Shown here piece after piece: positions 17,048 through 17,503 of a DNA stretch of 18,651 bases (positions are counted from its first letter, which is position 1; the number at the start of each line of letters is the position of its first letter). The notes beneath the pieces were generated by a model. That model was given only the letters and a program-made list of their open reading frames with translations, was not told where the DNA came from and did no database searches. Origin of the DNA: Phycisphaerales bacterium (GTDB lineage Bacteria > Planctomycetota > Phycisphaerae > WQYP01); assembly GCA_027451365.1 (NCBI GenBank), contig DAIDJN010000044.1, positions 1-18,651 of the forward strand, given 5' to 3'. A program made the position numbers and the translations under genes.

Positions 17048-17503
17048 GGAATGGTCTATAAGCCGAATTCTGTGCCCGTTTTAGGGCGGCGATCATTTGT
17101 CTGGGATGGCCGTTACCGGTCACCTCGAGCAACCTACCCGGAACCTCGTGCTTTTGCGGTAGCTGACTCTGCAAGCAGAGCTTCACCATAGGCAAAAACG
17201 CCGACAGGACGACCTTTTGACGGGGGCTTGTCCGGTCGGCACGCGCCGGGACAGCGCATCGGTTCCTTATTTGGTCTTGCACCCGGTGGGGTTTACCATG
17301 CCAGCCCTGTCGCCAGGTCCGCGGTGCGCTCTTACCGCACCTTTTCACCCTTGCCGTCATCCTTGCGGATGCTTGGGCGGTTTAAGTCTCTGTATCACTT
17401 TCCATGGCCTCGCGACCTCCGGCCGTTAGCCGGCATCCTGCTCTGTGGAGCCCGGACTTTCCTCCCCGGGATGAATCCCGCGGCGACTGTCCAATCCACT
17501 TCC
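17048..17503 (-). ncRNA. rnpB: RNase P RNA, bacterial type A (apparently chimeric; see findings)
   Basis: The minus strand carries GAGGAAAGTCCGGGC, ACAGAGA..AAACCGCC, GGGTGAAAAGGTGCGGTAAGAGCGCACCG, GGTAAACCCCAC, GCAAGACCAAATA, GGGTAGGTTGCTCGAG, AGACAAATGATC and ACAGAATTCGGCTTA in the canonical order. Confidence 0.97.

Follow-up and report, generated by a model that had tools for sequence, protein, structure and literature searches.

The RNase P RNA gene (rnpB) in the window, by which we mean the whole 18,651-nucleotide contig DAIDJN010000044.1 (C44), joins the 5' half of a Ferrovaceae gene to the 3' half of a Phycisphaerae gene. We attribute it, with a probability of about 95%, to a double assembly chimera that arose through a graph mis-join, in which C44 and another contig of the same bin, C42, would each carry one half of the host's rnpB fused to half of a foreign one; for an artefact of any kind, once chimeric library molecules are counted in, the figure rises to about 97%.

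C44 belongs to bin G000 (as do C42, C26 and C56, referred to below), a species-representative bin of 4.06 Mb in 88 contigs, with marker scores of 93.25% completeness and 0.87% contamination. Below position 17318 we take C44 to be Phycisphaerae DNA on the basis of its sequence; the taxon-named homologues of its FabZ-like protein are all Phycisphaerae or Phycisphaerales among the matches listed, most of which carry no taxon. The contig also encodes the host's rnpA (Table 1), and a host with this gene should require one intact rnpB.

Pairing between the two halves of rnpB on C44

The assembled gene matches RF00010 at 17043-17498 on the reverse strand with 258.4 bits, exceeding the gathering score of 100, and alignment places the 5' end of the Ferrovaceae rnpB near 17503. 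An earlier note, made by reading the window unaided, had claimed that the 5' and 3' halves of this gene do not pair. Using motif anchors, we counted 30 long-range pairs, in P1 (9), P2 (7), P4 (5), P5 (4) and P7 (5), for 44 of 55 RNAs (in the other 11 an anchor could not be located, and P6 lay outside the script). The strands quoted in the note lie where it had placed them, and the gene as assembled has 7 non-pairs and 5 G-U pairs among the 30, with no better register; P1, P2, P4, P5 and P7 fail to close within one molecule. Native RNAs have 0-2 non-pairs in 20 of 21 Phycisphaerae, the outlier being L028 with a count of 9 that is probably an anchor slip, and 0-1 in all 6 Ferrovaceae. The pairing defect of the C44 gene is real and far outside this native range. 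The mismatch reported for P6 was borne out by eye: GCUC, the partner of the Ferrovaceae GAGC, is present in the Ferrovaceae 3' half and absent from that of C44.

The switch between the two halves can be placed closely. Positions 17356-17319 of C44 are identical over 38 nt to 288-251 of C42, and three Ferrovaceae loci (L032, L033 and L036) stay identical to C44 through this block down to 17318 and diverge from 17317. The block in which the note had sought the junction, 17352-17321, falls inside the crossover interval of 38 nt so defined (17319-17356). The 5' half of C44 pairs at 29 of 30 positions with the 3' halves of L032, L033 and L036. On the other side, the 3' half finds its best match in a same-genus Phycisphaerae genome, in keeping with the planctomycete-like character that had been ascribed to the genes on that side; the two halves thus have their best matches in different taxa, as expected of a two-genome hybrid.

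Table 1. Coordinates of features on C44 that bear on the hybrid rnpB
Feature	Position	Strand	Evidence
Host rnpA	4804..5196	+	TIGR00188, 65 bits (cut-off 38.35)
Host glycoside hydrolase resembling alpha-L-rhamnosidase, 3' of rnpB	13275..16556	-	NF049897, E 5.9e-58, under the model cut-off; ORF list
3' half of host (Phycisphaerae) rnpB	17043..17317	-	Best blastn match same-genus L004, 75.5% over 290 nt
Shared conserved block holding the probable mis-join	17318..17356	-	38-39 identical nt
5' half of Ferrovaceae rnpB, foreign to the bin	17357..17503	-	2 differences each from L032 and L033
Class II dihydroorotase pyrC, Ferrovaceae	17426..18559	-	TIGR00856 pyrC_dimer, 441.9 bits (cut-off 292.95)
glmS, last 31 codons, Ferrovaceae; the contig ends there	18556..18651	-	glmS models, E about 1e-12; same order in L033 and L036

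Three further observations concern host-type genes and their surroundings. Between P15 and P18 the host-type 3' half carries about 90-100 inserted nt (window positions about 17150-17255), which are also found in family kin, whose RNAs are 450-550 nt long. Directly past its 3' end lies a strong G+C hairpin (17036-17012, reverse strand), similar to one in the same-genus genome; it was not called in the terminator scan, and the promoter and terminator scan performed at chance level. In the rnpB of one relative (L022, G027:C73:2759-3160) P4 and P1 seemingly lack their 3' strands, and this gene may be truncated or mis-joined.

The second rnpB copy, on C42

A second rnpB occupies 42-444 of C42, at the start of that contig, and scores 263.5 bits against RF00010. 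G000 alone has two matches among 31 relatives; across the 151 Phycisphaerae genomes searched, 143 have one match, 7 have none and G000 has two. The 5' half of C42 leaves 6 non-pairs in 30 with its own 3' half and none with the 3' half of C44, all 30 pairs being Watson-Crick with no G-U among them. Because the halves of each copy come from different organisms and the C42 5' half matches the C44 3' half, the host's single gene appears to be split over the two contigs, and we infer that C42 carries the missing host half and that C44 and C42 should be joined. Identity between the C42 5' half and the same-genus rnpB is 87.7%, and the genes 5' of rnpB in that genome are those that adjoin rnpB on C42. 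The genes 3' of rnpB in that genome differ from those on C44, so synteny lends no support to the C44 side; moreover, the C44 3' half is equally free of non-pairs with the 5' halves of 5 out of 21 other Phycisphaerae, so the perfect score reflects lineage and not identity. By sequence, all four halves are ordinary class A RNase P RNA (RF00010), and the two from the host together complete P1, P2, P4, P5 and P7, whereas each assembled copy breaks 6-7 of its 30 long-range pairs, compared with 0-2 in native genes. Mis-assembly, the cause that the earlier note had favoured, is supported. Of the reciprocal halves that it had suggested looking for on other contigs, the host 5' half is indeed on C42, but the 3' half that accompanies it there comes from elsewhere.

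That C42 3' half appears to derive from a third, alphaproteobacterium-like organism. All 24 metagenome loci that a 33-nt pattern retrieved resemble it (76-83% identity), one of them lying upstream of mraZ-rsmH, and its best matches in the plasmid collection are mostly Alphaproteobacteria (e.g. Tistrella, 77%). Among 401 genomes of Ferrovum's order (a count that includes one unpublished genome, G393, on which no claim rests) none matches it over its full length, and it gives short matches only, as it does in the Ferrovaceae loci. It pairs fully with the 5' half of L135 once P7 is shifted by one base; the same one-base P7 offset accounts for a score of 4 in all 15 alpha-type RNAs, and corrected P7 pairs 5 of 5 in the 4 of 15 that were checked. 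No near-identical source was found for this piece, and no close match to the Ferrovaceae 3' half and its flanks was found elsewhere in the bin. A simple reciprocal swap between two genomes is ruled out, since C42 carries a third organism's 3' half and not a Ferrovaceae one.

Elements that integrate into tRNA, tmRNA or rnpB genes leave attL and attR junctions, and the present layout, with host 5' and foreign 3' sequence on one contig, foreign 5' and host 3' sequence on the other and both copies crossing over in a short shared core, is the one expected of such a pair. A single crossover that inserted an island, a phage or a foreign chromosome circle into rnpB, leaving C42 and C44 as its left and right junctions, would nevertheless require one source rnpB. 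The two foreign halves come from different organisms and leave 5 non-pairs in 30 with each other, so that one integration event is largely refuted on this ground; the foreign DNA of C44 is housekeeping chromosome (pyrC, glmS), the 1.3 kb and 0.25 kb available within the contig ends are too short for an integrase and show no element gene, and neither rnpB copy is restored, the Ferrovaceae 3' half being absent from what was found in the bin. We therefore regard integration as the least credible of the explanations considered, with next to no probability left to it.

The Ferrovaceae tail and contigs from public runs

The last 1.3 kb or so of C44 (17318-18651) hold the end of glmS, a class II pyrC and the rnpB 5' half, and sequence comparison assigns them to Ferrovaceae. 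The tail differs at 6 positions in 1193 nt from the public MAG that carries L032 (JAKABO010000017.1), an identity of 99.5% that agrees with the betaproteobacterial look reported earlier for this side. Over its full length the tail aligns at 87% with L033 and Ferrovum myxofaciens P3G, whose genes follow the order glmS-pyrC-rnpB; the MAG of L032 and F. myxofaciens P3G belong to one family. The pyrC protein is 100% identical to that of L032 and 92% to that of P3G, and has no full-length relative in 40 Phycisphaerae genomes, where only partial matches at 30-41% were found; a pyrC-type gene and a glmS that belong to the host itself lie on C26 and C56, respectively. The pyrC frame is free of stops up to rnpB and enters it by ~78 nt (17426-17503), giving 377 aa. 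Since the frame of P3G likewise runs to 377 aa and into rnpB (that of L033 ends at 354 aa), the read-through is a Ferrovaceae trait and no part of the artefact.

A 16-nt direct repeat flanks pyrC (18565-18550 and 17518-17503), one copy lying across the glmS stop and pyrC start and the other across the likely rnpB -10 box. In L033 and L036 the repeat is imperfect, and the L032 contig begins just past the upstream copy.

The tail has a GC content of 0.60, against 0.55 for the contig, and a Markov composition score of z = -1.5, which places it among the bottom 7.6% of 3190 internal windows; it would not be flagged by composition alone. The most atypical contig-end compositions in G000 are at the ends of C40 (z -5.8), C58 (-5.3) and C51 (-3.8), which could be mobile DNA or additional mis-joins; a shared 31-mer search for further mis-joined ends was dominated by ordinary repeats. 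Tandem repeats with a period of ~70 nt, common to both contigs, lie at the starts of C56 (G000:C56:49-368) and C81 (G000:C81:84-474).

The near-identity of the tail to a living species also bears on whether the hybrids could be real, through two independent and recent inter-phylum recombinations that left two hybrid genes working in trans or tolerating their mismatches. Both hybrids do score about 260 bits on RF00010, P4 of the C44 copy can be closed through G-U pairs, and the host halves are fully complementary. Against this, two rare events would have had to strike one 38-nt site, both of them 1.3 or 0.25 kb from a contig end, with foreign DNA still 99.5% identical to its living relative, and two copies occur in none of the 150 other Phycisphaerae searched. 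We consider such recombination very improbable, and just as improbable its corollary, that a Phycisphaerae lineage alive today acquired DNA of two further bacterial classes through recombination in the rnpB core and builds an active RNase P RNA in trans, with the host 5' half supplied by one transcript and the host 3' half by the other.

Contigs assembled from public sequencing runs give a view of the same region. We compared four mine-drainage runs from one study, which possibly include the source of the bin and so are not independent, at the level of assembled contigs and not reads; host-side words were present in them at shares of 0.50-0.77, and six runs with shares under 0.1 were left out. 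Host pieces end at 17281-17297 in three runs, and exact Ferrovaceae pieces begin at 17326-17330. Two runs show the Ferrovaceae strand parting from the window at 17318 and continuing as the Ferrovaceae 3' half; a third run has a 3.4-kb contig, from a relative of the host, that parts from the window at 17356. Among the pieces listed, none bridges the conserved block, where contigs break at shared words anyway, and none carries the host C44-C42 join. Contigs of run X1 cover the host side and none lies over 17720-18487, although contig gaps carry no weight. At this contig level, the runs fit separate organisms that meet at a hub.

The Ferrovaceae rnpB pieces in these runs have depths of 100-300, as against 4-10 for the adjacent host pieces, values that are not to be read as copy numbers. 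Abundant Ferrovaceae molecules beside low-depth host ones would favour template switching in the conserved block during library PCR, so that chimeric molecules seeded the join; the hybrid would still be an artefact. This route demands two separate switches at the same block, while collapse in the graph accounts for both hybrids at once, and we give it only a very slight chance.

Proposed assembly path through the shared block

In the assembly reading that we prefer, the host would have a single ordinary class A rnpB, with its 5' half on C42 and its 3' half on C44, and the true chromosome order would run through C44 1-17356 and continue on C42 at position 289. Midway along rnpB, a 38-39-nt block that is identical in the host, a co-occurring Ferrovaceae species and probably an alphaproteobacterium would collapse at small k into one node of the de Bruijn assembly graph. 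The assembler would then have taken a wrong edge out of this node twice, so that C44 gained 1.3 kb of Ferrovaceae DNA and C42 gained 0.25 kb from the third organism. Three features by which an assembly chimera is recognised are present: the two sides come from different organisms with an abrupt switch, they share an exact stretch (38-39 nt) longer than a small assembly k, and the likely true continuation turns up on another contig, as the 5' half on C42. The switch points of both contigs fall within the single shared block, 1.3 kb and 0.25 kb from the contig ends. As to the assembler, 102 of the 176 contig ends share with another an overlap of exactly 141 nt, which we take to be the largest default k of MEGAHIT, and the overlaps fit an assembly made with that program.

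Chimeras of this kind have a precedent. In a benchmark reported as a preprint, 444 of the 640 near-complete MEGAHIT MAGs contained interspecies chimeric contigs; conserved regions are named as a cause (10.64898/2026.10.15.759294). The case described here resembles the short-read MAG chimeras of that study in having a foreign region that was joined at a conserved stretch, binned, and missed by marker scores. It differs from them in being joined within an RNA gene, whose long-range helices reveal the switch and indicate the right partner contig; no occurrence of rnpB was counted in that study (10.64898/2026.10.15.759294). A literature search, with most subscription papers outside its reach, returned no title on chimeric rnpB genes.

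The hybrid of C44 may not be the only one at this site. In 25 of 33 Ferrovaceae genomes rnpB is intact, with 313-340 bits and all tested P2, P5 and P7 pairs kept. One public MAG has, at a contig end, a copy of 236.7 bits (L038:3561-3931, the same locus as L167, G055:C91:12-382) that begins as a Ferrovaceae 5' half, becomes unlike the family right past the same conserved block, and has one P2 and one P7 pair broken. This is a probable second hybrid rnpB at the same block, a single case in the 27 Ferrovaceae matches that passed the cut-off. Three further Ferrovaceae genomes have partial matches only, at contig starts. These observations suggest that the 30-40-nt core of rnpB is a recurrent site of mis-joining. 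The long-range helix check offers a reference-free detector of joins that are missed by Rfam scores and, here, by base composition.

Were the recombination real, it would be an inter-phylum recombination inside an essential ribozyme; as an artefact, the hybrid has no importance as biology. Its consequence for this Phycisphaerales bacterium is one of curation: in the bin as it stands, the class II pyrC is false, both copies of rnpB are false and a correct rnpB is missing, and the likely C44-C42 join can be made.
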